DNA of 64,000 nt from Candidatus Omnitrophota bacterium (GTDB taxonomy: Bacteria > Omnitrophota > Omnitrophia > Omnitrophales > Aquincolibacteriaceae): assembly GCA_023247055.1 (NCBI GenBank), contig JAHFHF010000003.1:36367-100366 (forward strand). Reading direction: 5' to 3'. Below, piece by piece: positions 2,087 to 42,427 of the stretch. Both the position numbers and the translations under genes were made by a program. Under the pieces are notes generated by a model. It did no database searches. It worked only from the letters and a program-made list of their open reading frames with translations, and was not told the DNA's origin. Position 1 is the stretch's first letter. The number at the start of each line of letters is the position of its first letter.

Positions 2087-2183
2087 TTTGTCATTGCGAG
2101 TCCCGCGGGCATTTGAAGGGCGAAGCAATCTCGTTTTTGAAAGCGGGATTGCTTCGCTCCCTTCGGTCGCTCGCAATGACGGG
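2087..2183. repeat. MITE-like inverted-repeat element (GTCATTGCGAG … CGAAGCAATCTC family) overlapping the nrtA start
   Basis: Terminal inverted repeats ttgtcattgcgag (2087) and ctcgcaatgac (2171-2181). Internal inverted pair gggcgaagcaatctcg / gggattgcttcgctccc. The same words recur at more than 10 sites in the window. Confidence 0.7.
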
Positions 2184-3474: not shown

Positions 3475-3477
3475 AAC

Positions 3478-3903: not shown

Positions 3904-3933
3904 GTGGACAAACATACAACTGAGGAAAATTCT

Positions 3934-4956: not shown

Positions 4957-5082
4957 ATCTCGGACATGTCATCCTCGCCTCTGCGTGGAAGCAGAGACTA
5001 GGATGCGCATCTCTGTTGGAGCTGTGTCATCCTCGAATGCTTTTATCGAGGATCTAAAGCATTAGATTCCCGCTAGAAGCAT

Positions 5083-5210
5083 GCGGGAATGACACAACGC
5101 CAACAGCGTTGCGCATGACCGTCTCGGTCTCCGCACAGAGGCGGGAATGACACAACGCCAACAGCGTTGCGCATGACCGTCTCGGTCTCCGCACAGAGGC
5201 GGGAATGACA
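5083..5210. repeat. 58-bp tandem direct repeat, 2.2 copies
   Basis: The unit gcgggaatgacacaacgccaacagcgttgcgcatgaccgtctcggtctccgcacagag begins at 5083 and 5141, and a partial copy begins at 5199. Each unit contains the hairpin caacgc-caaca-gcgttg and the reverse-oriented GTCATTCCCGC word. Confidence 0.85.
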
Positions 5211-5233
5211 AAATACGACAAGGAGAAGGTTTC

Positions 5234-6079: not shown

Positions 6080-6080
6080 C

Positions 6081-6920: not shown

Positions 6921-6954
6921 AGCGGTGCCTGGCACCATCAACAGGAGCATCACG

Positions 6955-7635: not shown

Positions 7636-7698
7636 CAATTTCCGCTGTTCTGAAGAATCGCGATAACTGGCATGCTTCCTGCTTTACTAGCGCGGAAG

Positions 7699-7750
7699 CT
7701 TTTATTTTTATTACAAAATTGTATTTTTATTACAAAATTCTTTGAAGGAT
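7699..7750. promoter_or_regulatory. Tandem 18-bp repeat containing the palindrome TTGTA-N7-TACAA, about 35-85 bp upstream of nirB
   Basis: tatttttattacaaaatt occurs twice (7703-7720 and 7722-7739). The second copy forms ttgtatttttattacaa, a candidate CRP/FNR/NtcA-class operator. Confidence 0.35.
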
Positions 7751-7783
7751 TAAAAAAAATTAAGCTTTCCGGAGGTCTTTGGC

Positions 7784-10225
7784 ATGGAACAAAAGCATTT
7801 AGTCGTGGTGGGGGATGGCATGGCCGGCATGTCGTGTGTCGACCAAATTCTTAAACGAAAGCCGAATTTTAAAATTACGGTCTTAAGCGAAGAAACCTAT
7901 TACAACTACAACCGCATCTTGCTTTCCTGCGTGCTCGCGGGCGAAAAGACCGTCGATGAAATTTATATCAATACCAAAGCATGGTATGACGAACATGGCA
8001 TTGAACTTCTTTTAGGCGTCAAAGCCGTTGACGTGGATGCCAAAAACAAAATTGTTTTTACCGCCGATAACCGTCAGATTTCCTACGACCTGCTGCTCTT
8101 AGCCACGGGCAGTAACCCCTTTATTCCGCCGATTGCCGGTATCCAAAAAGATGGTGTGGTTACCTATCGCAATATGGCCGACACCGAAGAGATTATCAAA
8201 CGCTGTGAAACCGCCAAGCATGCGGTGGTGATCGGCGGCGGGCTTTTGGGACTGGAGGCCGCGCGCGGCACCTCCAGCCGGGGCGTGCATACGACGGTGG
8301 TGCACATCATGGACCGTTTGATGGACATGCAGCTTGATGAAGTCGGCGGCCAGTTTTTGAAACGTGAAATCGAGAAACTCGGCATCACCGTGCTTTTGAA
8401 TGCGAACACCGCCGAAATCATGGGCGATTCCAAGGTCGAAGGCGTCAGCTTCAAAGACGGCAATGCCGTGAAAGCGGACATGGTCGTGGTGGCCTGCGGC
8501 ATCCGTCCCAATGTCGAACTCGGTAAAAAAGCGGGTTTGAAAATTAACCGCGGCATTGTGGTCAACGATCACATGGAAACCAGCGACCCTTCCATTTTTG
8601 CGGTGGGCGAATGCGTTGAGCATCGCGAAAAAATTTACGGGTTGGTTGCGCCGCTCTATGACCAAGGCAAAGTGTTGGCTGCCACCATCACGGGAGATAA
8701 AGGGCCCGTGTACGAAGGTTCGGTCTTGGCGACCAAACTCAAAGTCATGGGCATTGAACTTTTTTCAGCCGGCGATTTTAAGGCGCTCGACTCCGACAAA
8801 GAAGTGGTCTCGTATCAAGACCATGCTTTTGGCGTTTACAAAAAAGTCGTGGTGTATGCTAACTGGGTCGTGGGCACGATTTTGATCGGGGATACCTCGG
8901 ATGCCAATCGTTTGCTGGAAATGATCCGCAAGCAGGAGAAAGTTACGGACAACCGGCAGCATTTGCTTTTTCAAAAACCGCCGGCTGTGGCCGGCTCGCC
9001 TTCCGATGTTATGTCCCGTCCGGACACGGACACCATCTGCGGCTGCATCGGCGTCAGCAAGGGGCAAATTCTTTCCGCCATCAAAGAGCAAAGCTGCAAA
9101 ACCGTTTCGCAAGTCAAAGCCTGCACCAAAGCATCTTCGGGCTGCGGCACTTGCGCCGGGCTTGTTCAGGATATTTTAGTCGCGGCATTGGGTTCTGAAT
9201 TCCAGGAAGAAAAAAAAGACACCCTGTGCGCCTGCGTGCCTTTTCCTAAAGAAAAACTCCGCACCATGATTCAAACCCAGAAATTAAAATCCGTGCAGGA
9301 TGTTTTGGACATTTACGGCAACGGCGCAGGCTGTTCGTATTGCAAACCGGCGTTGAGTTTTATTGTCGACGAAGTGCATTGCGGCGATCACAAAGAAGAC
9401 CGCTCGGCGCGGTTTATCAATGACCGCGTGCACGCCAACATTCAACGCGACGGCACTTTTTCTGTGATTCCGCGCATGCACGGCGGTGTGACCAGCCCGC
9501 AGCAGCTCCGCAAAATTGCGGATGTGGCGGAAAAATACAACGTGCCCATGGTCAAGGTCACGGGCAGCCAGCGCATTGACCTTCTGGGCATCAAAAAAGA
9601 AGACCTGCCCAAAGTTTGGGCCGACCTGGATATGAAATCCGGCCATGCTTATGCCAAAGCCGTGCGCATGGTCAAATCCTGCGTGGGTACGGACTTTTGC
9701 CGTTACGGCACGCAAAACTCGATTGCGACGGGCATCCAGCTCGAAACGCTTTTGGAAGGTCTTTACACCCCGGGCAAAGTCAAGATGGGCGTTGTCGGCT
9801 GTCCGCGCAACTGCGCAGAGGCCACGGTTAAAGACATCGGTCTTGTCGGCATCGAAGGCGGCTGGCAAGTCGTGATCGGCGGCGCTGCCGGTAAAGTCGT
9901 CCGCGCCGCAGATATTTTAACCACGGTCAAGACCACCGAAGAAGCTTTGGAAGCGGCACTGCTCTTTTTTCAGTATTACCGGGAAAACGGGGAGTATCTG
10001 GAACGCACTTATGATTTTGTCGAACGCGCGGGACTTGAAAAAATCCGCCGCGAAACCATTCTTGCTTCCGAAGAAACCAAAAAAGGCCTGCTCGAGCGCT
10101 TGAACAAAGCCAGGGCTAAAGCGGTCGATCCGTGGAAGGAAGCCTCCAAGCCCGTTCATCCCATGCAGTTCAAAGATTTTGTGCTGCCCAAAGACGCGGA
10201 AGCTTTGATCGGAGGCCTGTCATGA
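7784..10225 (+). CDS. nirB: Assimilatory nitrite reductase [NAD(P)H] large subunit
   Basis: N-terminal FAD/NAD-binding VVVGDGMAGMS. BFD-like [2Fe-2S] DTICGCIGVSKGQILSAI. C-terminal siroheme/4Fe-4S nitrite-sulfite reductase domain. 813 aa. Confidence 0.9.
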   Translation: MEQKHLVVVGDGMAGMSCVDQILKRKPNFKITVLSEETYYNYNRILLSCVLAGEKTVDEIYINTKAWYDEHGIELLLGVKAVDVDAKNKIVFTADNRQISYDLLLLATGSNPFIPPIAGIQKDGVVTYRNMADTEEIIKRCETAKHAVVIGGGLLGLEAARGTSSRGVHTTVVHIMDRLMDMQLDEVGGQFLKREIEKLGITVLLNANTAEIMGDSKVEGVSFKDGNAVKADMVVVACGIRPNVELGKKAGLKINRGIVVNDHMETSDPSIFAVGECVEHREKIYGLVAPLYDQGKVLAATITGDKGPVYEGSVLATKLKVMGIELFSAGDFKALDSDKEVVSYQDHAFGVYKKVVVYANWVVGTILIGDTSDANRLLEMIRKQEKVTDNRQHLLFQKPPAVAGSPSDVMSRPDTDTICGCIGVSKGQILSAIKEQSCKTVSQVKACTKASSGCGTCAGLVQDILVAALGSEFQEEKKDTLCACVPFPKEKLRTMIQTQKLKSVQDVLDIYGNGAGCSYCKPALSFIVDEVHCGDHKEDRSARFINDRVHANIQRDGTFSVIPRMHGGVTSPQQLRKIADVAEKYNVPMVKVTGSQRIDLLGIKKEDLPKVWADLDMKSGHAYAKAVRMVKSCVGTDFCRYGTQNSIATGIQLETLLEGLYTPGKVKMGVVGCPRNCAEATVKDIGLVGIEGGWQVVIGGAAGKVVRAADILTTVKTTEEALEAALLFFQYYRENGEYLERTYDFVERAGLEKIRRETILASEETKKGLLERLNKARAKAVDPWKEASKPVHPMQFKDFVLPKDAEALIGGLS

Positions 10226-10617
10226 GCGCTGACGCGTCCATGAAATGGTTCCGGGTTGCTTCTACCCGCGATATTCCTGAAAGGGAAGGCCGGCGCGTGG
10301 AATACGGTCCGCATATTGCCGCGCTTTTTAATTTAGGCACGGAGTATTTGGCCGTGGAGAACCAATGCCCGCATAAGAGCGGGCCTCTGGCCGACGGAAT
10401 TGTGGCCGGAAAAAATGTTTTTTGCCCGCTGCATAACTGGAAAATCAATTTGCAAAACGGCTGCGCCTTGAGCGGCGGAACCGGACAGGTCAAAACATTT
10501 CCGGTCAAAGTGTCGGGCAGTGAGATCTATCTTGCTTTTGAATCCGCGGCCTACCAAGCCTGTGATCTTTCGGCGCAAGCCCAAGAGTCTCAAACTTCCA
10601 ATCCGGTGGAAGGATGA
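10222..10617 (+). CDS. nirD: Nitrite reductase small subunit (Rieske-like)
   Basis: CPHKSGPL…CPLHNWKI. The ATG overlaps the nirB stop (ATGA). Confidence 0.8.
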   Translation: MSADASMKWFRVASTRDIPEREGRRVEYGPHIAALFNLGTEYLAVENQCPHKSGPLADGIVAGKNVFCPLHNWKINLQNGCALSGGTGQVKTFPVKVSGSEIYLAFESAAYQACDLSAQAQESQTSNPVEG

Positions 10618-10626
10618 GATCAGACC

Positions 10627-12318
10627 ATGGACGAATTTAATCTGATCGATTTGCTCGACTCGAGCGGCCTTCCGCTCAAAAATCGGATCAGCAAAGAAGG
10701 CTATTACAACCCCCGCCCGGAGAAGGCCATAGCGCCGGCCGCTGACGTTCTCATTCCTACAGCCCCCCTCGAACAAGGCGAACAATACCGTTTCCATTTT
10801 GACATGTCCTTGTGCATCGGCTGCCAATGCTGCGTTGTTGCCTGCAACGAACAGAACAACAATCCTGCCGAGGTGAATTGGCGGCGGGTCGGCGAAATCG
10901 AAGGCGGTATTTATCCTGACACTAAACGCTACCATCTTTCGATGGCCTGTAATCATTGTTTGGATCCGTCCTGCCTGGAGGGTTGTCCGACAGACGCTTA
11001 CATCAAACTTGAAAACGGGATTGTTCAACACCAGGCCGATGAATGCATCGGCTGCGGCTACTGCACCTGGAACTGTCCCTACGGTGTTCCGCAATACAAT
11101 ACGGAACGCAACATCGTGACCAAATGCGATATGTGTCACAGCCGTCTTAAAGAAGGGCAGCTGCCGGCCTGTGTGGCCGCCTGCCCGGAAGGCGCGATCA
11201 AAATTGAAAAAGTCAATGTGGCCGAGTGGCGCGAAAACCATGCGCAAGCGAACGCTCCTTATGTGCCCGATTCCGGCATGACGCTTTCCACCACGCGGAT
11301 CACATTGCCTGAAAATGTGCCCGACGATTTGCTGCGTGCCAACCGGCACCGGATTGAACCCGAAAAGCCGCACACTTCGCTCATCTTGATGACGGTTTTG
11401 ACCCAGCTGGCCGCCGGCGGCTTCATGACGCTCTGGCTGCTGGAGTTTTTTGCCCGCTGGGTTAATTTTTTGAAACCGCTGCAGGGTTTTCTTCCTTATG
11501 GCGCGGCCGGTATGCTTGCGATGACGGGCCTGGCGCTTGTCACGGCAGTTTTCCACCTGGGCCGTCCATTGCATGCCTACAAAGCCCTGCGGATGTGGAA
11601 GCGTTCCTGGCTTTCGCGCGAAGTGCTCTTCTTTGCGCTTTTTTCCAAGGCCGGCGCCGCTTATGCCGGGCTGGAACTGGCCCGGCATTTTTTAGGATGG
11701 AATATTCCGGACAACGCCATGACGCTGCTAGGAGCGGCCGTGGTGCTCACGGGGTTGGCGGGCGTGTATGCGAGCGCAAAAATCTACATGGTACCGGCAC
11801 GGCCGGCTTGGAACACGATCCGCACGCCGCTGCGCTTTTTTTTGACGGGCTTTATTTTGGGGCCTTTGTTTGCCCTCGTAGTTTACAGCCTGTATGGGGT
11901 TCTTCAAATCCATGAGCCGCTCAGTGCCGCGATCAAAGGCCCGGTGTTTGTTTTTCTTGCGGTTTCGGCGATTGCTGGTTTTTTTCAGATGGCCGTGCTT
12001 CTATCGAGACTCTTTTCCATGCCCTGGGAAGAGTTCAATGAACTGCATGCCTCGAGTTTTCTCTTGCTGCACCGTTTCAAAAATCTTTTTGTCCTGCGGC
12101 TGGCGGCCCTTGTTCTCGGTTCTTTTATCTGTCCCTTTGCCCTGTTTGCGGCATTGCAGCCGGATGCTTTGCAGGGGGGAATCTTTTTGGGCCTGGGTTC
12201 CGTGTGTTTTCTTTTTTCGCTGGCCGGTGAATTTTTAGGCCGGTATTTGTTTTTCGTCACCGTGGTTCCTAAAAATATGCCGGGCTCGTTTTTTGCGGCC
12301 CAAGGCGGCAGCCATTGA
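10627..12318 (+). CDS. Fusion protein: DmsB/NrfC-type 4x[4Fe-4S] ferredoxin domain + NrfD/PsrC-like polytopic membrane (quinol-interacting) domain
   Basis: Four Cys clusters (CIGCQCCVVAC, CNHCLDPSCLEGCP, CIGCGYCTWNCP, CDMCHSRL…CVAACP) followed by about 280 aa with 8 or more hydrophobic helices. Lies immediately upstream of nasA and is translationally coupled to it. Confidence 0.65.
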   Translation: MDEFNLIDLLDSSGLPLKNRISKEGYYNPRPEKAIAPAADVLIPTAPLEQGEQYRFHFDMSLCIGCQCCVVACNEQNNNPAEVNWRRVGEIEGGIYPDTKRYHLSMACNHCLDPSCLEGCPTDAYIKLENGIVQHQADECIGCGYCTWNCPYGVPQYNTERNIVTKCDMCHSRLKEGQLPACVAACPEGAIKIEKVNVAEWRENHAQANAPYVPDSGMTLSTTRITLPENVPDDLLRANRHRIEPEKPHTSLILMTVLTQLAAGGFMTLWLLEFFARWVNFLKPLQGFLPYGAAGMLAMTGLALVTAVFHLGRPLHAYKALRMWKRSWLSREVLFFALFSKAGAAYAGLELARHFLGWNIPDNAMTLLGAAVVLTGLAGVYASAKIYMVPARPAWNTIRTPLRFFLTGFILGPLFALVVYSLYGVLQIHEPLSAAIKGPVFVFLAVSAIAGFFQMAVLLSRLFSMPWEEFNELHASSFLLLHRFKNLFVLRLAALVLGSFICPFALFAALQPDALQGGIFLGLGSVCFLFSLAGEFLGRYLFFVTVVPKNMPGSFFAAQGGSH

Positions 12319-14522
12319 AAAATTTTTTAAAACCCATCAAGAAACGCCTCGGCCTGGACATTCAAAAGGACAAATATGCCTACGGTCTGGATGAGCAGTT
12401 CGGCTATTTGTCCAAGGCGAAAATTCCGGACCGCTGGGTCGCTACGACTTGCGGCTACTGTTCGGTCGGGTGCGGGATGCTGATCGGAGTAAAGGCCGGC
12501 AAGCCGGTCAGCGTGCGCGGCCATGCAGATCATCCCGTGAATGAAGGCATGCTTTGCCCCAAAGGATTGGCTGAACATTATGCCATTACCGCGCCGAACC
12601 GCGCGCAATGGCCGCTCTTGAAAGACACCAAGGGCCGTTTTCAAAGAGTGACGTGGGATGCGGCCATCCAAACGCTTGTGGCGAAATTCCGCGCCATTCA
12701 AAATCAATACGGACCGGAGGCTTTGGGGGTCATCAGTACGGGCCAGCTTGTGACCGAAGAGTTTTACACCCTTGGAAAATTGGTCCAGCTTGGGTTCGGC
12801 ACAAAAAATTATGACGGCAATACGACGCTTTGCATGTCGAGCGCCGTGGCGGGGTACAAACGCTCGTTTGGCAGCGACGGGCCGCCGGGGAATTACGAAG
12901 ACCTGGAAAAAGCGGACTTGGTTTTTCTGATCGGCGCCAATATTGCGGACAATCATCCCATCTTGTGCTACCGTCTTGAAAAAAACCTGAAAAAAACCGT
13001 CATCGTTGCGGACCCGCGCGTGACGAAAACCGCCATGATGGCCGATCTTTTTCTGCCCGTGAAACCGCGCAGCGATATTGCGCTGCTCAACGGCATCATG
13101 CATTGGATCATCAAGGCCGGCAAGGCGAACCAGGATTATATTCAGAAACATACGCAGGGTTTTGCGGAATTGCGCGCGCATCTTGAGAAATATACGCTCG
13201 ATTACGTCAGCGGCGTCACAGGCCTGCCGGTCCAGCAAATCCAAAAAACGGCGCAGCTTTATGCGGAAGCCAAAGCGCCTTTTATCGGCTGGACCATGGG
13301 CGTCAATCACAGCACGCAGGGCACGGAAACCGTGAACACGATCTGCAACCTGGCTTTGATCACCGGCAATATCGGCCGGATCGGCGCGGCGCCGTTTTCC
13401 ATCACCGGCCAATGCAATGCCATGGGCACGCGCGAATCGGGATTTGCGTCAAGCCTGCCCGGCTACCGCAAATTTGAAGAGGCGGGCCACCGGGCCGAAC
13501 TGGCCCAATTGTGGAATGTGGATGAAGAAATCATTCCCAAGGCCCGCGGCCTGGCCTATCCCGATATTATCGAGGCCGTGCTGAGCGGAAAAATTAAAGG
13601 GCTGTGGATCATTGCCACCAACCCGCTGGTGTCGTTTCCCAACCAAAATTATCTCAAAGAAGTTTTGAGCCGGCTGGATTTTCTCGTGGTTCAGGACGGC
13701 TATCACCCCATTCCCACTTCAGAGATCGCGCATCTGGTTTTGCCGGCGGCCGTGTGGGGTGAGAAAGAAGGCACGTATACGAATTCCGAGCGCCGTGTGA
13801 GCAAAGTGAATAAAGCGGTCGAGCCTCCGGGGCAGGCCAAATCGGATTTTGATATTTTTCTTGCCATCGCCGAAGCGCTGGGCGTGTCCGGAAAACTTTT
13901 TCCCGGCTGGACCAAGCCGGAAGATGCTTTCGAAGAATGGAAAAAAGTCTCGCGCAGCCGGCTTTGTGATTATTCAGGTATGACGTATGAATTACTCGAG
14001 CAAATTGGCGGGATTCAATGGCCCTACTCGCTGGATCAGCCGCGGGATGCCGCGCAAACTTATCCGCTGTATCAAGACGGCGTTTTTCAAACCGCGGACG
14101 GCCGCGCCAAACTTTGGGTGGTCGAAAATGAAGCGCCGCCGGAAGTCCCGAATACCGAGTATCCCTTTTGGCTCAACACCGGCAGGACCGTCGAGCATTG
14201 GCATACGCGCACCAAGACCGGGCAGATCCCGCTATTGAACCGTCTGTCGCCGGAAGCCTGGGTTGAGATGAATACGCGCGATGCGCTGAAACTCAAAATT
14301 AAACACGGCGATTACGTTCGCGTGGACTCCCGCCGAGGCGCGATCGACCGCATCGTCGTGCGTGTGACGGAAACCGTGGCGCCCGGGCAAGTGTTCATTC
14401 CGTTTCATTTTGCGGAAGCCAATGCCAACAATTTGACCGTCAATAGCTGCGATCCCTATTCGCGCGAACCGAACTACAAGCAGGCTGCCGTCCAAATCCG
14501 CAAAGCGGATTCGAAACTTTAA
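12315..14522 (+). CDS. nasA: Assimilatory nitrate reductase catalytic subunit (molybdopterin oxidoreductase, NasA/NarB type)
   Basis: N-terminal [4Fe-4S] motif CGYCSVGCGM…GMLCPKG. 735 aa. No twin-arginine signal. TTG start overlaps the upstream stop. Confidence 0.8.
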   Translation: MKNFLKPIKKRLGLDIQKDKYAYGLDEQFGYLSKAKIPDRWVATTCGYCSVGCGMLIGVKAGKPVSVRGHADHPVNEGMLCPKGLAEHYAITAPNRAQWPLLKDTKGRFQRVTWDAAIQTLVAKFRAIQNQYGPEALGVISTGQLVTEEFYTLGKLVQLGFGTKNYDGNTTLCMSSAVAGYKRSFGSDGPPGNYEDLEKADLVFLIGANIADNHPILCYRLEKNLKKTVIVADPRVTKTAMMADLFLPVKPRSDIALLNGIMHWIIKAGKANQDYIQKHTQGFAELRAHLEKYTLDYVSGVTGLPVQQIQKTAQLYAEAKAPFIGWTMGVNHSTQGTETVNTICNLALITGNIGRIGAAPFSITGQCNAMGTRESGFASSLPGYRKFEEAGHRAELAQLWNVDEEIIPKARGLAYPDIIEAVLSGKIKGLWIIATNPLVSFPNQNYLKEVLSRLDFLVVQDGYHPIPTSEIAHLVLPAAVWGEKEGTYTNSERRVSKVNKAVEPPGQAKSDFDIFLAIAEALGVSGKLFPGWTKPEDAFEEWKKVSRSRLCDYSGMTYELLEQIGGIQWPYSLDQPRDAAQTYPLYQDGVFQTADGRAKLWVVENEAPPEVPNTEYPFWLNTGRTVEHWHTRTKTGQIPLLNRLSPEAWVEMNTRDALKLKIKHGDYVRVDSRRGAIDRIVVRVTETVAPGQVFIPFHFAEANANNLTVNSCDPYSREPNYKQAAVQIRKADSKL

Positions 14523-14524
14523 CG

Positions 14525-14620
14525 GCTCGTCATGCTGAGTTCGAGATGTGTTTTTGTCATCCTGAGTCGCTTGAGTACTCTCAAGACGGCGAAGGATCTC
14601 AGAGCCGAGGCTCAAAAGGA
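14525..14620. repeat. GTCAT(C/G)CTGAG-family repeat copies between nasA and narK
   Basis: cgtcatgctgagttcgag, ttgtcatcctgagtcgc…ggcgaaggatctcagagc. Confidence 0.6.
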
Positions 14621-14628
14621 ATTAAAAC

Positions 14629-15897
14629 ATGAAAGTGAAAGATTTTCTTAAAAGCGGACATCCGCCGACGCTCTTTGCGGCATTTCTTTATTTTGACACG
14701 AGTTTCATGATCTGGGTCCTGATGGGCGTCCTGGGCGTTTTTATTTCCGATGACTTCGGACTGACGGCCGCTCAAAAAGGTTTTCTTGCGGCTGTGCCTA
14801 TTTTAGGCGGGGCTTTAGTGCGTATTCCCTTGGGCCTTCTCGTGGACCACATCGGGCCTAAAAAGACAGGCCTTTTGGGACAGGTGATTGTGCTTATCCC
14901 GCTTTTGGGCGTCTGGCTTTTCGGCAGTGATTTAAATGCGGTGTTTGCTTTTGGGCTGCTCCTCGGGATTGCCGGCGGAAGTTTTGCAGTGGCCCTGCCG
15001 CTGGCCAGCCGCTGGTATCCGGCGCAATACCAAGGCATGGCGCTGGGCATTGCCGGGGCGGGCAACAGCGGCACGGTTCTGGCGGCGCTTTTTGCTCCGA
15101 GCCTGGCTGAGATCATGGGCTGGCGCAATGTTTTTGGAATCGCTCTTGTACCGGTTCTGCTGACGCTCGCCGCTTTTTATTTTTTGGCTAAGGAAAGCCC
15201 GGCGCAGCCCAAACCCAAAAAATTTTCGGATTACTTTTCTGTTTTTAAAGAAGCAGACACCTTTTGGTTTTGTTTTTTCTACGGCATCACTTTTGGCGGC
15301 TTCGTGGGACTAGCCAGTTTCCTGGGGATTTTCTTTCATGACCAATACGGCCTTTCCAAAGTCATGGCCGGAAACATTACGGCCCTGTGTGTCTGCGCCG
15401 GCAGTTTCTTCCGGCCGGTAGGAGGCTATTTGGCCGACCGGTTCGGGGGCGTCAAAATGCTCAGCCTTCTTTTTGGGGCCGTGGCTTTATTCGTTTCGGG
15501 AGTTGCCACTCTGCCTTCCTTTATCCTTGCCGTGACGTTTATTTTTTTGGCCATGGCTGGCCTTGGCATGGGCAACGGGGCCGTGTTTCAACTGGTGCCT
15601 TTGCGGTTCAAAAATGAAATTGGCGTGATGACGGGTGTTGTCGGCGCGGCCGGCGGCCTTGGCGGTTTTTTTCTGCCGACAATTCTTGGTTTTTTTAAAC
15701 AAACGGCTGGTTCCTACGGTTTTGGCTTTTTGGCCTTTGCGTTTTTTAGCTTCGCGGCCCTGGTGACTTTGCAAATCGTGCAAAAAGGCTGGAGTTTTTC
15801 CCAGCGGCAGCCTGAATTTCAGCCTGATTTTTCAACGGCGGCTTCTTTACATCCAAACCTTATTCTGCAGCCGGAAGCGGCCGCTAACCGGGAGTGA
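14629..15897 (+). CDS. narK: Nitrate/nitrite transporter, MFS NNP family (NarK/NrtP-like)
   Basis: 12-TM MFS with GxxxNxG-type motifs (GIAGAGNSG, GMGNGAVFQL). Confidence 0.8.
   Translation: MKVKDFLKSGHPPTLFAAFLYFDTSFMIWVLMGVLGVFISDDFGLTAAQKGFLAAVPILGGALVRIPLGLLVDHIGPKKTGLLGQVIVLIPLLGVWLFGSDLNAVFAFGLLLGIAGGSFAVALPLASRWYPAQYQGMALGIAGAGNSGTVLAALFAPSLAEIMGWRNVFGIALVPVLLTLAAFYFLAKESPAQPKPKKFSDYFSVFKEADTFWFCFFYGITFGGFVGLASFLGIFFHDQYGLSKVMAGNITALCVCAGSFFRPVGGYLADRFGGVKMLSLLFGAVALFVSGVATLPSFILAVTFIFLAMAGLGMGNGAVFQLVPLRFKNEIGVMTGVVGAAGGLGGFFLPTILGFFKQTAGSYGFGFLAFAFFSFAALVTLQIVQKGWSFSQRQPEFQPDFSTAASLHPNLILQPEAAANRE

Positions 15898-32842: not shown

Positions 32843-32846
<4 letters not shown>
32157..32846 (+). 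CDS. sdhC: Succinate dehydrogenase/fumarate reductase cytochrome b membrane subunit (single-subunit anchor, Wolinella FrdC type)
   Basis: Five hydrophobic helices with conserved His residues. First gene of the C-A-B arrangement. Confidence 0.65.
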
Positions 32847-34752
<1,906 letters not shown>

Positions 34753-34756
<4 letters not shown>

Positions 34757-35502
34757 ACCTTGTTCTGCATGTCTGGCGCCAAAAAAACAATTCTGAAAAA
34801 GGCAAAATGGTCCGCTATGAGGCCCAAGATATCAATCCGCACATGTCTTTTCTGGAAATGCTGGATGTGGTCAACGAAAGGCTGATTCAAAAAGGCGAGG
34901 ATCCGGTTGCGTTTGACCATGACTGCCGCGAGGGAATCTGCGGCGCCTGTTCATTGACGATCAACGGCCGGCCGCATGGGCCAGAACGCGGCACGACCGT
35001 CTGCCAGCTGCACATGCGTCATTTCAAGGACGGTGAAGAAATTTATATCGAGCCTTGGCGCGCCAAAGCGTTTCCCGTGATTAAAGACTTGGTTGTGGCC
35101 CGCCAGGCTTTTGACCGCATTATCCAAAGCGGTGGTTTTGTATCTGTCAAAACCGGCAGCGCCCAGGATGCGAACACCATTTTAATCGGCAAGGACACTG
35201 CCGACAAAGCCATGGATGCTGCGGCCTGTATCGGCTGCGGCGCCTGTGTGGCGGCTTGTCCAAATGCGTCAGCCATGTTGTTCGTAGCCGCCAAGGTATC
35301 GCATCTGGCTTTGATGCCGCAGGGACAAGTCGAGAAACAAAAGCGTGTTTTGAACATGGTCCGTACCATGGACAACGAAAACTTCGGCAATTGCACCAAC
35401 CACTACGAATGCGAAGCCGCCTGCCCCAAAGAAATTTCCGTGGATTTCATCGCCCAGATGAATCGGGAATATTTACACGCAAGCATCAATGAGAAGCGCT
35501 GA
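34753..35502 (+). CDS. sdhB: Succinate dehydrogenase/fumarate reductase iron-sulfur subunit
   Basis: [2Fe-2S] CREGICGAC, [4Fe-4S] [12 protein letters not shown], [3Fe-4S] CEAACP. Confidence 0.9.
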
Positions 35503-35523
35503 TAGTCATCGAAAGGAGATTTT

Positions 35524-36117
35524 ATGAAAAAAAGTCTTTTCGTCTTAACCTTGGCTGCGCTGCTGGCCTGTCCTATCTCCAGTGCCGGCGCGGCGACCTA
35601 CGACATTGATTTGGATCACAGCACGGTGGGTTTCAAAATCCGGCATCTGCTTTCAAACGTGCGCGGAACTTTTGACCGGTTTTCAGGCACGTTGACCTTT
35701 GAACCCGGTAAGCCTGAACTGTGGAAAGTTGAAGCCGTAATCCAATCCGAAAGCATCAATACGAACGTAGCAGAACGTGACAAGCATTTAAGAAGCGCGG
35801 ACTTCTTTGATGCTGAAAAATACCCTGCGATTACGTTTAAAAGCACGAACGTAACGCTTGTGGATGAGCAGCATGCCAAGGTCGAAGGTCTTTTTTCAAT
35901 GCACGGAGTTGAGAAACTCGTCACGCTGGATGTGGAAATTCATGGCGTGGCCAAAGACCCGTGGGGCAATGTGCGCGCCGCTTTTACGGCTACCACCATG
36001 CTCAACCGCAAAGATTTTGGGATTGTCTATAATCAGACGCTGGAAACCGGCGGCGTGCTGATCGGCGAAGACGTCCAGGTCACGATCGAAATCGAAGGGC
36101 TTCAAAAAGAAGCCTGA
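35524..36117 (+). CDS. yceI: YceI-family periplasmic protein
   Basis: Signal peptide and the YceI-like pattern (…YDIDLDHSTVGFKIRHL…VRGTFDRFSG…). Confidence 0.7.
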   Translation: MKKSLFVLTLAALLACPISSAGAATYDIDLDHSTVGFKIRHLLSNVRGTFDRFSGTLTFEPGKPELWKVEAVIQSESINTNVAERDKHLRSADFFDAEKYPAITFKSTNVTLVDEQHAKVEGLFSMHGVEKLVTLDVEIHGVAKDPWGNVRAAFTATTMLNRKDFGIVYNQTLETGGVLIGEDVQVTIEIEGLQKEA

Positions 36118-36151
36118 TTTAAGCAAGCAATACCAACCCAGGAGAAAACGT

Positions 36152-36424
36152 ATGAAGAAATCGAAAAAAAATGCATTGCTAGCCGCGTCTGTTTCGGGGC
36201 TTTTAGCCGTGGCAGGTTTTGCTGCGGGTGTTAATACGGTTTATGCAGCGGATGAAATCGCCTGTTCGGGCATTAATGGCTGCAAGGGGCAGGGCGCTTG
36301 CGGCGGCAAGGGCCATTCATGCGCCGGAAAAAATGCCTGCAAAGGGCAGGGCTGGCTCAAAGTTGCTTCGGCCGATGCCTGCACCTCGCAGGGCGGAGCC
36401 GTCGTTCCCGGCATGGCCATGTAA
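36152..36424 (+). CDS. bufA: DUF2282-type Cys-rich secreted RiPP precursor (bufferin-like BufA)
   Basis: Sec signal MKKSKKNALLAASVSGLLAVAGFAAGVNTVYA, then a 58-aa core with 6 Cys in a Gly/Lys-rich context (CSGINGCKGQGACGGKGHSCAGKNACKGQGW…C). HSCAGKNACKGQGW matches the DUF2282 signature. RBS AGGAGAAAACGT. Confidence 0.7.
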   Translation: MKKSKKNALLAASVSGLLAVAGFAAGVNTVYAADEIACSGINGCKGQGACGGKGHSCAGKNACKGQGWLKVASADACTSQGGAVVPGMAM

Positions 36425-38136
36425 TGAGTCAAGATGGGATAACGGGGCTTTTTGCGCCAAAATGGCCCCGGTTAGGGTGCGGAGTCGGGCTGCGGCCGAA
36501 ACACTACCCGGTCATTACAAGCGAGTGGCCGAAAGTCGATTGGTTTGAAGCCATTACTGAAAACTACATGGACTCCGGTGGCCGGCCTGCGGCCGTTTTA
36601 GAACAAATTCGCTCCCGTTATCCCATCGCCCTGCATGGCGTCGCGCTTTCCATCGGCTCCATGGATCCTTTGAATGAACAGTACCTCACCCGCCTGCAAA
36701 ATCTTGCCGAACGTATCCAGCCGGCGATCGTATCCGACCATTTGTGCTGGTCCGGCGCCGGCGGCGAACAGCTTCACGATTTGTTGCCGCTGCCCTTCAC
36801 GGAAGAAGCCATCCGCCACGTGGTTTCACGCGTCCAGCACGTCCAGGATAGGCTCAAAAGACCGATTCTGCTTGAAAATGTCTCGACGTATGTGACTTTC
36901 CGGCATGCTCAAATGCCTGAATGGGTCTTTCTTGCGGAAATTGCGCGGCGTTCCGGCTGCGGCATTTTGCTAGACCTCAACAACATCTATGTTAACGCGT
37001 GTAACCATGGTTTTGACGCAGCGGCTTATATTGATGCCGTGCCGGTTTCAAAAATCGGGCAATTTCATTTGGCGGGCCATACGGACATGGGCAAATTTCT
37101 TTTTGACACGCACAGTGCGCCCGTGATTGCGCCGGTTTGGGATTTGTACCGCAGAGCCCTTCAGCGCTGCGGTCCGGCCGCCACGCTGCTGGAATGGGAC
37201 GAAAATATTCCGGATTGGCCCCGCCTTGAAGAGGAATGCCGCCGTGCCCTAGAAATTTATGCGGAATTTGAGCATACGGAACCGGCCGCAGAGATCGAGA
37301 CTTCCATGGCTTCCCATCCGCCGACGGCGCAAAATCCGGGAAAGCCATTGCGTGAAATTCAAGGGATGATCAAATCTTACATCCAGCCTGCAGCCCGCAA
37401 GCCTAAAGATAAAATTTTTAATGCCCAGGGCGGCGAGCCGGGAGAAGCGAGAATGGCGGTTTATGCCGGCGGCTATCTTGCGCGCATCCATGAGAGTTTG
37501 TGCGAAGTCTACGAAACGGTGCGGAAAATTTTAGGCGCCGATGATTTTATGCAGCTGGCGGAAGCCTATGCTGTGCAATACCCTTCGCGGGATTATAACT
37601 TGACCCATGCCGGCCGGCATCTGCCCAAACTGCTGCGGGAATCCAAAGCCCCCGCAATCCTGAAACGCCCATACTTGACGGAGTTAGCACGCTTGGAATG
37701 GCTTCTCTCTGAAGCGTTCCATGCGTTCGACGAGACTGCTTTTGATCATGCGCAGATGGCCCGGATCGCGCCGGAAGCCTGGGAAGAGACGCGGATTTTT
37801 TTTCAGCCGTCAGTCCGGCTTTTTGAATCGGATTGGCCTGTTCTGACGTTATGGCAGGAGCGCGGCATTGAAACAATTCAAGAGTTTCAGGTCGCGGCAC
37901 CGCAGCAGGTATTAATCGGACGGCGTGGAACGCAAGTGCGCTGCGAAATTTTGGCCCCGTTTCAATACGCGCTCATAGAGGGTCTTCTGTCCGGTCAAAC
38001 CCTGGGAAAAGTCTGCGAGAGACTCGCCGAGGAATCCGCCGAAGCGGATCTTCCCGTTACGGAATGGTTTGCGCGCTGGGTGCAGGATGGCCTCATTGCC
38101 CGCTGCGAAGCCCCCAAACTTAAATCAGTGCCTTAG
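36424..38136 (+). CDS. bufBC: Fused MNIO (DUF692, multinuclear non-heme iron oxidative enzyme, MbnB/BufB-like) + DUF2063 (BufC/MbnC-like partner) protein
   Basis: The ATG at 36424 overlaps the bufA stop (TAATG). The N-terminal ~290 aa are DUF692 (GVGLRPKHY…DWFEAITENYMD…HGVALSIGS…). The C-terminal ~270 aa are DUF2063 (…MAVYAGGYLARIHESLCEVYETVRKILGADDFMQLAEAYAVQYPSRDYNLTHAGRHLPKLL…). It is one continuous 570-aa frame. Confidence 0.7.
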   Translation: MSQDGITGLFAPKWPRLGCGVGLRPKHYPVITSEWPKVDWFEAITENYMDSGGRPAAVLEQIRSRYPIALHGVALSIGSMDPLNEQYLTRLQNLAERIQPAIVSDHLCWSGAGGEQLHDLLPLPFTEEAIRHVVSRVQHVQDRLKRPILLENVSTYVTFRHAQMPEWVFLAEIARRSGCGILLDLNNIYVNACNHGFDAAAYIDAVPVSKIGQFHLAGHTDMGKFLFDTHSAPVIAPVWDLYRRALQRCGPAATLLEWDENIPDWPRLEEECRRALEIYAEFEHTEPAAEIETSMASHPPTAQNPGKPLREIQGMIKSYIQPAARKPKDKIFNAQGGEPGEARMAVYAGGYLARIHESLCEVYETVRKILGADDFMQLAEAYAVQYPSRDYNLTHAGRHLPKLLRESKAPAILKRPYLTELARLEWLLSEAFHAFDETAFDHAQMARIAPEAWEETRIFFQPSVRLFESDWPVLTLWQERGIETIQEFQVAAPQQVLIGRRGTQVRCEILAPFQYALIEGLLSGQTLGKVCERLAEESAEADLPVTEWFARWVQDGLIARCEAPKLKSVP

Positions 38137-38400: not shown

Positions 38401-40134
38401 TTAATGTTTCGGCGGATTTAGATTTTTCCCCACATAAATCCAGAGCAGGGCGGCCAAAACGCAAAGGCTGATGCCCGAAGTGGGCCGGCCCAGCAGCCAC
38501 TGCAGGGGCCCGATCGTGGTGGCGAAAAGGGCGGTGGTGGCTATGGCCCAAAGCTTCAGGCTCGCAAGCCATTCACGGCGGTTTTCACGAAGCTGCTTTT
38601 TGCCGATCCGGCAGCGCACAGCTGAAGGCCTCCAAAACCCCGGCGGCGTCACGCGGCGATAAAAATCATCCAGGGTTTGGGGATCGACAGGTTTTGTCAA
38701 GAGCGTGACGGGCAGCCAGACCAGCGCACTGCCGCAAATCATGAAAAGCAGGCCCAGCGGTGAGTTGACCGGAAGGCCGAATGCGGCAAAGACATACGGG
38801 CGGACTAAAATCACCGGCAGGCTGACGGCCAGGGCCGCAATTTCACTCCAGGGGTTGATGCGATGCCAAAACCAGCGCAATAGAAATACCGGCCCGACGG
38901 CCGCGGTGAGGTTCAGCACAAACGTAAACATGCCGCTGATGGATTCGGTAAAAAAAGCCACGCCCATGGCTCCGGCTGAAAGAACAAGGGGCGTAAGGCG
39001 GGCCGCAAGCACGTAATGCGATTCGGTTTTTCCCTTGGCTATGAAACGTTTATAAAAATCGCTGACAAAATACGACGAACCCCAATTGAGCTGGGTACTC
39101 ATGGTCGACATGAACGCCGCAAAAAAAGAGGCGACCATGACGCCTTTCCAGCCTGCCGGCAAGAGCGACATGGCCAGGCGGGGATAGGCGCGTTCATGAT
39201 CCGTCAAATCCGGCAGCAGCACCAGCGAGGCCAGCGCAGTCAAAATCCACGGCCAGGCGCGCAGGGCGTTTTGCGCGATATTGAACCAGAGCACGGCCAG
39301 CGCTGCCTGCTTTTCATCCTTACACGAATTCATGCGTTGGACAATGACGCCGCCGCCGTCGGTGTTTTTCCAGGCCCACCACTGAATCAAAATGATGCCG
39401 AGAAACCAGCCGAAGGGCGAGGCCAGAAACTCGCTGGGTGTTCCGCCGGAGACCGGCGGAAAAATATCCAGCTTGCCGGTGTGCTGCAAGGCTGTCGTGA
39501 TATGCGCCAGTCCACCTGCGGCGTTGACGGCATAAACAGCGAGTACAATCGCGCCGATCATGGCGATGATAAATTGAAAAAAGTCCGTGAGAATGACGCC
39601 CCAGTAGCCGGAGAGCGAGCAGTAAATTGTCGTTAGGCCCATGGCAAAAAAAATCGACCCGGGTTTGCTCCAGTGGGTTGTCTCCTGCATGATTTTGACC
39701 AGCCCGGTCATGGGCCAGGCGCCCATGATAAACACATTATAAAAAACGCCCCAATAAAGCGCTTTGAAGCCGCGCAGAAAAGCCGCAGGTCTGCCGCTGT
39801 AACGGCGCTCCACAAACTCCACTTCGGTCATGACCCCGGCGCGTTTCCACAGCCTGGAAAAAAAGAACACGGCCAGCATGGTGCTCATGGCCAGGCCCCA
39901 GACCTCCCAATTGCCCCAGATGCCTTTTTGGCGCACGATGCCGGTGATCAAAAGCGGCGTGTCGGAGGAAAAAGACGTGGCGGCCATGGACGTGCCCGCC
40001 AGCCACCAGCCCAGTTTGCGGTTGGAAGTAAAATACGACTCCAGGCCCTCGGAAGCTTTCTTGGTCAGAAGCAGGCCCAGAAAAAGACTCAGCCCGCAGA
40101 AAATAAAAACAATGGCCCAATCAATTGTCTGCAT
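38401..40134 (-). CDS. Sodium:solute symporter (SSF family)
   Basis: 13 or more TM helices and the SSF-type N-terminus. 577 aa. Confidence 0.75.
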   Translation of the reverse strand: MQTIDWAIVFIFCGLSLFLGLLLTKKASEGLESYFTSNRKLGWWLAGTSMAATSFSSDTPLLITGIVRQKGIWGNWEVWGLAMSTMLAVFFFSRLWKRAGVMTEVEFVERRYSGRPAAFLRGFKALYWGVFYNVFIMGAWPMTGLVKIMQETTHWSKPGSIFFAMGLTTIYCSLSGYWGVILTDFFQFIIAMIGAIVLAVYAVNAAGGLAHITTALQHTGKLDIFPPVSGGTPSEFLASPFGWFLGIILIQWWAWKNTDGGGVIVQRMNSCKDEKQAALAVLWFNIAQNALRAWPWILTALASLVLLPDLTDHERAYPRLAMSLLPAGWKGVMVASFFAAFMSTMSTQLNWGSSYFVSDFYKRFIAKGKTESHYVLAARLTPLVLSAGAMGVAFFTESISGMFTFVLNLTAAVGPVFLLRWFWHRINPWSEIAALAVSLPVILVRPYVFAAFGLPVNSPLGLLFMICGSALVWLPVTLLTKPVDPQTLDDFYRRVTPPGFWRPSAVRCRIGKKQLRENRREWLASLKLWAIATTALFATTIGPLQWLLGRPTSGISLCVLAALLWIYVGKNLNPPKH

Positions 40135-40175
40135 GAAACTATTCTCCGTCTTTGCAGCTTAGGCTTAGTGAGTAC

Positions 40176-40268
40176 TCCCTCTCCCTTTGGGAGAGGGTTG
40201 GGGTGAGGGAGTGAATATCTGTTGGATTTCCCCTCATCCTAACCTTCTCCCCAGAGGGGAGAAGGAAT
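40176..40268. repeat. Structured GC-hairpin repeat element (family 3: GGGATGAGGG-loop-CCCTCATCC + CCTTCTCCC-NNN-GGGAGAAGG), copy 1
   Basis: ccctctccctttgggagaggg; gggttggggtgaggga…tcccctcatcctaacc; ccttctccccagaggggagaagg. A second copy is at 41471-41530. Confidence 0.65.
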
Positions 40269-40319
40269 AAAACAAAACGTGCATACAACGTTAAGGGTTT
40301 CAGTTTACGCAAGGAAGTC

Positions 40320-41429
40320 TTACCTTACTGGGTTTTCAGGAATGATTTTTCCAAGAATACAAGCGCGGCGCGCGCCTGTCGTTTCCGGCAGATGATTGAC
40401 TTGGCCTTGAATCGCACGCAGGGCAAAAAAAGCAAAGGCGAGGGGTTCCTTGGCCTGGGCCGGCAGTCCCAGCGATTCCGCAGACAAAACTTTGGCAGGC
40501 TGGAGTAAGTCTTTGAGATGGGCCATCAAAACCGGGTTGAGCGCGCCGCCGCCGCTGACAATGACTTCCCGAATTTTATAGGGGGCAAAGCGCCAATAAC
40601 TGTCGGCAATGCTCCAGGCGGTAAACAGGGTTAGCGTTGCCAGAATGTCCTCAGGTCCGAATTTCCAAAACGCGGCCGGGATCATTTCTTCGCAGAACAA
40701 TTCTTTGCCTGTGGATTTAGGCGGCCTGCGTTTAAAGTAAGGCTGGCGCTGAAGTTTGCTGAACAAATCCGGCAGGATTTTTCCGCGGCGCGCTAGCGCG
40801 CCATTTTTGTCAAAGGCTTTGCGCCCCTTCGTAAAATGCCGCACGGCCGCATCCATCAGCGCATTGCCCGGCCCGTTGTCAAAAGCCAGGGGCGGCAGGC
40901 CCTTTTTGACAAAAGTGACATTGGCAATGCCGCCGATATTCTGCAGGGCGCGCCCGTATTTTTCAGAAAAAAAGTATTGATCAAAAAAAGGCATCAGCGG
41001 CGCCCCTTCGCCGCCCGCAGCGATATCGCGCGGCCGGAAATCAGCCACAACCGGAATACCGGTTTTTTCTGCAATACAAGAAGGCTCGCCGATCTGCAGC
41101 GTATTTGCCGGAGAATCGTCCGGCCCGTGATAGACCGTCTGGCCGTGCGAACCGATCACGGTGACTTTTTTGGAAGACGTGCCGGTTTTTTTAAGAAAAG
41201 CCCCGGCCTGGTCTGCGAAAAAATGGCCGAGTTCAAAGTTGAGACGGGAAAGTTCTGAGGTTTTCAGGCTGAGGGCGCCTGTTATTTTTGCAGTCAAAGC
41301 CGCCGGATAGGGAATAGTGCGGTAAGCCCGTAGTTTGAATGTCTGCGGCGTGAATTCTCCAAGAGCCAGCGAAAGGCCATCCGCGGAAGTGCCGGACATC
41401 ATACCAAGAGCCAGGAGGGGAGGACGCAT
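40320..41429 (-). CDS. anmK: Anhydro-N-acetylmuramic acid kinase
   Basis: LALGMMSGTSADGLSLAL… N-terminal AnmK signature. Confidence 0.85.
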   Translation of the reverse strand: MRPPLLALGMMSGTSADGLSLALGEFTPQTFKLRAYRTIPYPAALTAKITGALSLKTSELSRLNFELGHFFADQAGAFLKKTGTSSKKVTVIGSHGQTVYHGPDDSPANTLQIGEPSCIAEKTGIPVVADFRPRDIAAGGEGAPLMPFFDQYFFSEKYGRALQNIGGIANVTFVKKGLPPLAFDNGPGNALMDAAVRHFTKGRKAFDKNGALARRGKILPDLFSKLQRQPYFKRRPPKSTGKELFCEEMIPAAFWKFGPEDILATLTLFTAWSIADSYWRFAPYKIREVIVSGGGALNPVLMAHLKDLLQPAKVLSAESLGLPAQAKEPLAFAFFALRAIQGQVNHLPETTGARRACILGKIIPENPVR

Positions 41430-41470
41430 TTAATTAAGCCGCGATTTCTCCTCTGTCTCCGTGCAGAGGT

Positions 41471-41530
41471 CGGGATGAGGGAAGAACATGTTTCCCCTCA
41501 TCCTAGCCTTCTCCCGGAGGGAGAAGGAAT
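41471..41530. repeat. Family-3 GC-hairpin repeat element, copy 2
   Basis: gggatgagggaagaacatgtttcccctcatcc + ccttctcccggagggagaagg, in the murQ-anmK spacer. Confidence 0.65.
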
Positions 41531-42427
41531 ATTCTGTAAAGCTTTTGCTAAAAAACCAGCAGCGGCGGCTAATTTTTTTTGAGCAGCACTTACATTCAAA
41601 CCGGTGCGCGCCATCAGAATGGCGGTTTTGGCATTACATCCGGACTGAGCCAGCAGGGTTTTGGCTTTTTTTTCCGGCACGCCGCCCAAATGAGCGACAA
41701 GCCGCAGCGCCCGCGCTTCGAGTTTTTTGGATTTAGGCTGCAAGTCGATCATCCAGTTCTGATAGACCTTGCCCAGCTGCACCATGGAGAGAACAGTCAG
41801 CCGGTTCAGGATCAACTTCGTGGCCGTGCCTGCCTTCAGGCGGGTTGAACCTGAAATCACCTCAGGTCCTGTAACGGCGGCAATAACGCATTCGGCCGGT
41901 ACGTTTGACGGAATTTTTTTATTGCAGCTCACCAGGATGGTGCGGACTTTTCTCTTTTGCGCGGCTTCGAGCGCGCCGTAAACAAAAGGCGTGACACCGC
42001 TGGCGGCAATGCCGACCACCACATCCTTAGACGTTAATTTTTTTAAAAAAATACGGTAACCGTCGGTGCGGTCATCCTCAGCGCCTTCTTTTGAGCGGAA
42101 AACGGCGGATTTGCCGCCGGCCATAATGCCCTGAACGAGGGAAGGCGACGTACTGAAAGTCGGCGGGCATTCGGCGGCTTCAATCACGCCCAGCCGTCCG
42201 CTGGTGCCTGCGCCGGCAAAAAAAAGCCGGCCGCCGCCGCGTAGCGCGGCCGTGATGATCCGCACGGCCCGGGTCACCTGCTTTTTTTCACGGTAAACCG
42301 CCCGGGCTACTGAGGCGTCTTCGCGGTGCATGAGATCGAAAGCTTTTTCGATCGAAATGCGGTCGATTTTGCGGGTGCGCGGGTTGGCTTGTTCGGTGCT
42401 GAGCCTGCCGTAAGAAATGCCTGCCAT
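41498..42427 (-). CDS. murQ: N-acetylmuramic acid 6-phosphate etherase (SIS domain)
   Basis: …FFAGAGTSGRLGVIEAAECPPTF… SIS-domain and MurQ pattern. Confidence 0.85.
   Translation of the reverse strand: MAGISYGRLSTEQANPRTRKIDRISIEKAFDLMHREDASVARAVYREKKQVTRAVRIITAALRGGGRLFFAGAGTSGRLGVIEAAECPPTFSTSPSLVQGIMAGGKSAVFRSKEGAEDDRTDGYRIFLKKLTSKDVVVGIAASGVTPFVYGALEAAQKRKVRTILVSCNKKIPSNVPAECVIAAVTGPEVISGSTRLKAGTATKLILNRLTVLSMVQLGKVYQNWMIDLQPKSKKLEARALRLVAHLGGVPEKKAKTLLAQSGCNAKTAILMARTGLNVSAAQKKLAAAAGFLAKALQNIPSPSGRRLG

Follow-up and report, generated by a model that had tools for sequence, protein, structure and literature searches.

A natural BufB-BufC fusion beside a predicted bufferin-2-type precursor gene and a YceI gene in an uncultured Omnitrophota bacterium

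Can the two proteins that mature a bufferin, a multinuclear non-haem iron oxidase (MNIO) and its partner protein, be a single polypeptide in nature, and what would such a polypeptide make? The question is raised by a locus in a stretch of 64,000 nucleotides from Candidatus Omnitrophota bacterium (GenBank assembly GCA_023247055.1, contig JAHFHF010000003.1, positions 36,367 to 100,366 of the forward strand). This whole stretch is called the window here, and all coordinates that carry no locus label are counted from its first letter. Three genes on its + strand form a module in the order yceI, bufA2 and bufBC, i.e. a gene for a YceI lipocalin, a gene for the small precursor of a peptide that is made by the ribosome and modified after translation (RiPP), and a single open reading frame (ORF) in which a BufB-type MNIO is joined to a BufC-type partner. 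Our data indicate that the fusion is genuine and not rare, and we consider it very probable that the module makes a periplasmic metallophore of the bufferin-2 type.

The maturase gene bufBC lies at 36424..38136 (+) and encodes 570 aa. Its ATG (36424) shares one base with the TAA stop of the precursor gene (36422-36424) in the sequence TAATG, an adjacency of the bufferin type. The initial annotation of this DNA had described the product as one MNIO-DUF2063 polypeptide, and the description holds: one ORF carries both Pfam domains, and no stop or frameshift lies between them in the sequence. Both ORFs of the pair were confirmed at their positions by reading the sequence. Among the Pfam families that had been proposed, DUF692 and DUF2063 are both found on the 570-aa protein, while DUF2282 is not found on the precursor.

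The N-terminal half is an MNIO (DUF692) TIM-barrel domain of the BufB type, covering residues 19-278 (36478..37257, +). It matches PF05114 with 365.8 bits (E 1.4e-109, cut-off 25) and the NCBIfam model MNIO_BufB with 376.6 bits (cut-off 310), and it stays below the cut-offs of HvfB (259.8 against 360), MbnB (TIGR04159, 51.7 against 325), ApyH and ChrH. The BufC-like half (PME type 1), residues 309-570 (37348..38133, +), was recognized by PF09836 and by Foldseek. It starts with a helical DUF2063 domain, placed by Pfam at residues 330-403 (37411-37632, +; E 3e-13, 50.3 bits, gathering score 27.2), and continues into a beta-sheet/helix domain of the RiPP recognition element (RRE) type at about residues 440-566 (37741-38121, +), as read from the secondary structure of the predicted model. 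The NCBIfam model RiPP_RRE_HvfC spans residues 341-542 with 39.4 bits, under its cut-off of 142. Between the two halves runs a linker of approximately residues 282-308 (37267..37347, +; FEHTEPAAEIETSMASHPPTAQNPGKP), which has a low predicted local distance difference test (pLDDT) score and is not conserved in homologues.

We predicted the structure of the whole chain using AlphaFold2 with an alignment of 40 homologues. The model reaches a pLDDT of 89.8 and a predicted template modelling (pTM) score of 0.88, and residues 291-310 are its only weak internal stretch (block mean pLDDT 56 and 76). Using Foldseek, the N-terminal half of the model was matched to TglH (8hi7_B, E 5.5e-17), to 3bww with a template modelling (TM) score of 0.86 over the target, and to MbnB (7tcr/7fc0/7dz9) with TM scores of 0.76-0.81. 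The C-terminal half was matched to the two-domain DUF2063 protein NGO1945 (3dee) with a TM score of 0.72 over the target, and because the model matches both domains of that structure, this half is a complete PME-type-1 partner with a DUF2063 and an RRE-type domain. It is not a stand-alone protein here; it is a covalent part of the MNIO chain. The stand-alone partner proteins are reported to fall in a narrow size range of 250-260 residues (PMC12452194).

The active site of the MNIO half is conserved. Nine residues, H71, H106, E151, D184, N187, H215, D228, H230 and E257, do not vary among the 40 fused homologues and are aligned to the conserved H/D/E/N residues that bind metal in MbnB. We take the assignment of individual residues to particular irons to be that of MbnB. 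D259, which corresponds to the Asp proposed as catalytic base, is likewise invariant in these homologues. The next position, 260, is acidic and is Glu in 33/40 of them; the equivalent site is Asp in the MNIOs of the Cys-Lys type and is thought to touch the substrate Lys (PMC13097082).

How common is such a fusion? Three contigs, drawn from NCBI, ENA and Logan assemblies, encode the identical 570-aa protein. All of the 120 best homologues (48-71% identity, 537-629 aa) have both domains. We also ran a search over 1.84 billion representatives of clusters formed at 50% identity and called fusions by a test with two hidden Markov models (HMMs), and found BufB and BufC on one chain in 118 of the 150 best representatives, down to ~32% identity; a fused query favours fused matches, so that 118/150 is a lower bound on diversity and not a frequency. 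Across 40 fused homologues the unconserved linker varies from 26 to 78 aa, and it has ~27 aa in the window's protein. Of the relatives of the maturase that carry a name, the nearest are Omnitrophota metagenome-assembled genomes. It had been stated for this locus that the two proteins are separate in described systems, which is right for the characterized ones but leaves out the sequence databases, where the fused form is abundant.

We observed the fused form in other settings also. At locus L095 (356-2465) a fused BufB-BufC stands beside a classical 4-Cys DUF2282 precursor, with no YceI seen, and at locus L096 (4709-7134) a fused BufB-BufC with a 6-Cys precursor is followed by DoxX. Since these two loci differ in both respects, the fusion is not tied to one precursor type or one cluster layout. 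A separate homology scan of a genome collection with the 570-aa protein gave seven loci, which we rejected as fusions: each has split bufB and bufC genes in different frames, and the tblastn matches that looked full-length there were misleading once the ORFs were inspected.

The split relatives indicate where the two genes were joined. We analyzed 80 metagenome loci with purpose-built HMMs, and found that the window's own clade holds both fused and split forms. In the split relatives the bufB stop and the bufC start fall exactly at the position of the window's linker, and the N-terminus of the split BufC, M-x-EPSLRE-x-QRWMK, corresponds to residues 308-320 of the window's protein. The two genes overlap by ATGA in L031, L033, L034, L037 and L044, and meet in a TGA-ATG junction in L021. 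They are in the same frame with a single stop between them in L016 (3491-3496), L021 (3862-3867), L024 (632-643), L025 (3850-3861) and L027 (580-633), and therefore one substitution would fuse bufB and bufC. We considered read-through or selenocysteine insertion at the stops of L016, L021, L024/25 and L027 and rejected both, as the ATG of a normal BufC N-terminus follows 0-48 nt on.

The same junctions could be used to argue that the 570-aa ORF results from an error of assembly or sequencing, in which adjacent bufB and bufC genes have lost a stop or gained a 1-nt insertion or deletion. The split relatives do join within the linker, some of them in frame with one stop, and a single error could yield an apparent fusion. 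However an error of this kind would not be expected on three contigs from different assembly collections, nor in all of the 120 best homologues and 118/150 of the best cluster representatives. The fused loci also form a coherent subclade, the linker length varies as in real linkers, and the predicted model packs both halves. We therefore reject the artefact, whose likelihood we regard as negligible.

The distribution of fused and split forms suggests that fusion and fission recur. A neighbour-joining tree of the BufB domain with 241 sequences requires 29 changes between fused and split forms by parsimony, a count that comes from a quick distance tree without support values. In the same tree the window's subclade is a fused one, and its sister subclade is split. 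Recurrence is further suggested because the sister lineages have translationally coupled split genes. The fused gene most likely arose through loss of the bufB stop.

What does the fused maturase act on? The precursor gene bufA2 (36152..36424, +) encodes 90 aa, and reading of the sequence places a Shine-Dalgarno-like AGGAG (36140..36144, +) 7 nt 5' of its ATG. By inspection, residues 1-32 (36152-36247, +) form a predicted Sec signal peptide, with a basic n-region MKKSKKN, a hydrophobic h-region and a VYA/AD site fitting the -3/-1 rule; these n, h and c features are kept across an alignment of 20 precursors. The remaining 58 aa (36248-36421, +) form a core with six Cys, which are residues 38, 44, 50, 57, 63 and 77 of the precursor. 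C38, C44, C50, C57 and C63 are invariant columns of the alignment. The sixth Cys is present in all 20 precursors and does not form one invariant column, with alignment jitter around it. The core pattern of the clade is C-x-G-(I/V)-N-x-C-K-G-x-G-x-C-G-G-K-G-H-S-C-A-G-K-N-A-C-K-G-Q-G-W...C, and two C-K-G motifs occur in the precursor. The EGKCG repeats of oxazolin precursors were not found in it.

The precursor was matched to the NCBIfam BufA2 model NF050166 with 60.4 bits (cut-off 60, E 1.4e-16), and so were 20/20 precursors from related loci, with a best E of 3e-21. The initial annotation had read it as a DUF2282 protein, and this identity did not survive: current Pfam gives no match to PF10048 at E<=0.01 or even at E<=10, and we rejected the BufA1/DUF2282 assignment. 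On its family match the precursor is thus a predicted bufferin of the BufA2 (Buf_6/12Cys) group and not a BufA1. DUF2282 was a reasonable guess, the two families being related, because older Pfam labelled the Caulobacter BufA2 as DUF2282 and some precursors of the window's clade carry that label. The precomputed Pfam tags place PF10048 on six-Cys clade precursors in L010 (7704-7967), L014 (5720-5989) and L012 (5684-5953), and these precursors also match the NCBIfam BufA2 model. The BufA1/DUF2282 and BufA2 family models overlap at their edges. The broader claim of a bufferin-type RiPP locus is borne out by the BufA2, MNIO_BufB, PF05114 and PF09836 matches together.

The number of Cys also needs another reading. 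Six Cys had been taken as a departure from the usual four, but six is what defines the published Buf2 (Buf_6/12Cys) family, 90% of whose members have six (PMC12452194). These peptides were placed in the 'Cys-Lys' group of the 'captophorins' in a 2026 paper (PMC13097082). In place of the up to three heterocycles that had been suggested, the literature on Caulobacter Buf2 predicts four thiooxazoles and one disulfide: a change of -4.03 Da was found on each of the four central Cys, and the first and the last Cys are likely disulfide-linked (PMC11626156). We would expect the product of the window's precursor to have the same four thiooxazoles and one disulfide.

An alternative hypothesis could be that this maturase makes oxazolone-thioamide pairs of the methanobactin type, or that it modifies a set of Cys other than that of Caulobacter Buf2. 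An oxazolone-thioamide pair has the same mass as a thiooxazole, and close relatives among the MNIOs have been assigned to either product (bioRxiv 10.64898/2025.12.15.693703, 10.64898/2026.06.05.730506); in addition, Lys follows only two of the four central Cys. On the other side, the same recent work backs 5-thiooxazoles for bufferins and re-assigns oxazolin to thiooxazoles, and the enzyme scores as BufB, far under the MbnB cut-off and under that of HvfB. We consider the alternative quite improbable and keep the thiooxazole product as the expected one.

In the resulting scheme the chemistry, the order of events, the copper target and any role of YceI would be those of characterized relatives; for Caulobacter Buf1 and Buf2 the chemistry, the export and the copper binding have been established (PMC11626156). 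The 90-aa BufA2 would be bound in the cytoplasm by the single-chain maturase, with the DUF2063 and RRE-like BufC half presenting the substrate. The BufB half, as a multinuclear non-haem iron oxidase, would then use O2 to convert Cys44, Cys50, Cys57 and Cys63 to 5-thiooxazoles, with a loss of 4 Da each. The modified precursor would be exported by Sec and cleaved after Ala32, and a Cys38-Cys77 disulfide would form after export. The small folded product would chelate periplasmic Cu(I)/Cu(II) and so buffer copper. As to the fusion, a fixed 1:1 tether through the flexible linker of ~27 aa would replace the non-covalent, translationally coupled heterodimer of BufB and BufC.

The third gene of the module, yceI (35524..36117, +), encodes 197 aa with an N-terminal signal sequence. 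It matches PF04264 with 162.9 bits (cut-off 23.7, E 8.9e-48), and a phmmer search against the PDB gave 1wub (TT1927b, 2.5e-37) and the E. coli YceI 1y0g (4.8e-36). No unusual Cys/Met/His metal motif was seen in the YceI proteins of the clade. Judged by sequence similarity, the protein is a canonical periplasmic lipocalin of the polyisoprenoid/quinone-binding type. The initial annotation had listed YceI among the neighbours, which was right as to its position, but it is not a mere neighbour: it is a conserved member of the module in this clade. Among loci with enough upstream DNA, yceI lies on the same strand directly 5' of bufA in 20 of the 22 clade loci and in 5 of the 35 loci outside the clade, these counts being approximate as some contigs are duplicates. 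Upstream of bufA in related loci it is found at 7056-7661 in L010, 7047-7634 in L011, 4926-5549 in L012, 5021-5632 in L013 and 5019-5666 in L014. Where gene tables exist (six loci), the order YceI, small precursor, fused maturase on one strand is constant, and the other flanking genes all differ. A tie of YceI to the fusion itself was ruled out, since the split sister subclade has YceI as well; it tracks the clade instead.

What YceI could do here is suggested by its relatives. YceI proteins bind ubiquinone-8 or polyprenyls, and BcnA together with cytochrome b561 acts in the detoxification of lipid peroxyl radicals (PMC9113575). Redox proteins that act outside the cytoplasm in the service of copper enzymes can also contain YceI-like domains (PMC8981238). 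The window's protein is like the YceI/BcnA lipocalins in its canonical YceI domain and signal sequence. Unlike them, usually paired with cytochrome b561, it is paired with bufA-bufBC, and no cytochrome b561 is annotated beside yceI in the six loci with gene tables. By analogy, we infer that YceI could be an envelope-stress companion, as DoxX is in other bufferin clusters. Beside these proteins, a Cu/Zn superoxide dismutase gene adjoins yceI in L011 (6448-6975), and DsbD/thioredoxin-like (DsbH) genes occur near some related loci (L012 8214-11553, L014 1-1269). These genes may point to a redox or copper context in the periplasm, and they are inconsistent across loci.

We speculate that the locus could represent a distinct three-component system, in which YceI works with the mature bufferin, maybe in the place of DoxX, and connects this peptide, copper-loaded or disulfide-bonded, with the quinone pool or with the detoxification of lipid radicals; the fusion would then be an adaptation ensuring 1:1 stoichiometry in small-genome, uncultured lineages. 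This is a doubtful proposal, to which we give a small chance.

A further hypothesis is that the peptide is bufferin-like but has a role other than copper buffering, e.g. handling another metal, or acting against periplasmic oxidative or lipid-peroxide stress with YceI as its partner. It would fit with the absence of copper-homeostasis genes and copper-responsive regulators near the locus, with the ubiquinone-8, polyprenyl and lipid-radical activities of YceI and BcnA (PMC9113575), with the superoxide dismutase gene of L011, and with the view of the authors of the MNIO landscape, who propose roles beyond copper and cite MerC fusions and gig operons (PMC12452194). However all the bufferin-type or thiooxazole peptides tested so far bind copper (PMC11626156; PMC13097082), and the core motif of the window's precursor is shared with those copper-binding peptides. 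A role other than copper buffering thus seems unlikely to us, and a copper-buffering bufferin of the second type is retained as the preferred reading.

Several observations weigh against that reading or narrow it. The signal peptide was judged by eye alone, and the precursor lies barely above the trusted cut-off of the BufA2 model (60.4 against 60 bits). The YceI linkage is clade-specific, and shared descent could account for it instead of a functional tie. Near the locus we found neither copper-resistance genes nor a SigF/NrsF regulator, and copper as the target is therefore carried over from the proteobacterial models. The extent of the transcription unit is also a concern, as only 21 bp (35503-35523) separate the end of sdhB from the start of yceI, and a scan for promoters and terminators recognized none between these two genes. 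sdhA and sdhB are at 32843-35502 (+), with a putative sdhC upstream of them. In this genome, transcription of the succinate dehydrogenase operon might run on into the bufferin module; the linkage of sdh to yceI was not found at related loci.

The closest known system is the buf2 cluster of Caulobacter vibrioides (bufA2-bufB2-bufC2). It has a precursor with a Sec signal, which is predicted for the window's precursor too, and it has, like the window's locus, a core of ~60 aa with six conserved Cys and C-K-G motifs, a BufB-type MNIO, a DUF2063 and RRE-type partner and no DoxX, and it shares the prediction of four central thiooxazoles with an outer disulfide (PMC11626156, PMC12452194, PMC13097082). 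In contrast, the window's locus encodes BufB and BufC as a single chain and has a conserved YceI gene upstream, no SigF/NrsF-type regulator is in view, and the host is an uncultured bacterium. That DoxX is missing from the window's locus had been noted before and was upheld, with no precomputed Pfam DoxX within +/-10 kb and no match in a tblastn search of the whole 64-kb window with one DoxX query (best E 3.8). Its absence is normal because the founding buf2 cluster of Caulobacter is also without it; DoxX is optional, being absent from that cluster and dispensable for Buf1 (PMC11626156).

The bufferin 1 clusters (BufA1-BufB1-BufC1-DoxX) work by the same logic with the same pair of enzymes, their precursor fold is related, and some precursors of the window's clade (L010, L014) have precomputed PF10048 matches. 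They differ in that BufA1 has four Cys and DoxX is usual, whereas the window's precursor has no PF10048 match. The MbnBC and TglHI heterodimers, which make methanobactin and 3-thiaglutamate, have the same TIM-barrel multi-iron fold and conserved ligands, and they too need a partner protein; they differ in their precursors and chemistry, have separate subunits, and their models give weak scores here. The locus is assigned neither to methanobactin, given the low MbnB score and a precursor of the BufA2 type with a predicted signal peptide, nor to the oxazolin (HvfABC) system, given the HvfB and HvfC scores below their cut-offs and the lack of EGKCG repeats.

The most direct counterpart of the fused chain is man-made. 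An engineered fusion of HvfB and HvfC from the oxazolin system of Haemophilus influenzae, also with B before C on one chain, works in vivo, and its product yield in vitro exceeds that of the co-expressed pair (bioRxiv 10.64898/2026.07.17.739211). That fusion has no linker, while the window's protein is natural, belongs to the BufB subfamily and has a linker, ~27 aa long, that is variable among homologues.

The surroundings of the module are as the initial annotation had described them, with YceI and succinate dehydrogenase (sdhCAB) upstream and an SSF symporter downstream, the latter encoded on the minus strand. After the symporter gene come genes for AnmK (anhydro-MurNAc kinase) and a MurQ-like protein with a SIS domain; the whole set (38401-42427, -) looks like cell-wall sugar recycling and has no relation to the bufferin module. 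An apparent nitrate/nitrite assimilation cluster occupies 2056-15897 (+) and includes an NMT1-like binding protein, an 813-aa NirB-type nitrite reductase, a 735-aa molybdopterin oxidoreductase, a major facilitator superfamily transporter and a 563-aa ORF with a 4Fe-4S dicluster domain joined to a DmsC-like membrane anchor. An Rfam scan of the window gave no matches.

In the literature that we searched, the only trace of a natural fusion between an MNIO and its partner was a one-line remark of 2009 on one Pfam entry with DUF692 N-terminal to DUF2063 (PMC2954202). The MNIO landscape paper reports fusions of MNIO with nitroreductase and with precursors, and does not report MNIO-partner fusions (PMC12452194). 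A preprint of July 2026 gives MovX and ChrH as the only natural exceptions to the two-protein rule (bioRxiv 10.64898/2026.07.17.739211). The fused architecture is abundant in databases, widespread among uncultured bacteria and uncharacterized, within a known RiPP family. The YceI linkage was likewise unremarked: in a bufferin context, our literature search found YceI only in a figure legend on one Legionella cluster, a passing mention of a YceI and cytochrome b pair (supplement of PMC12452194).

The bufferins, or captophorins, are currently the largest group of RiPPs made by MNIOs and belong to a recently recognized form of bacterial copper handling. Work on the enzymes is hampered by weak, sub-stoichiometric complexes between MNIO and partner, and the HvfB-HvfC fusion was engineered to get an active, spectroscopically tractable enzyme (bioRxiv 10.64898/2026.07.17.739211). 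The natural fusion occurs in no fewer than 118 sequence clusters (50% identity); the accompanying precursors have four or six Cys, and DoxX is present in some cases and absent in others. It offers single-chain 1:1 maturases that are ready for structural studies and work on the mechanism. What is known of the pathway's logic stays unchanged, and the finding extends the existing picture. The paired fused and split sister lineages provide a route to study how a heterodimer becomes one chain, and the linkage to YceI is a testable hint that the bufferin may have further needs in the periplasm.

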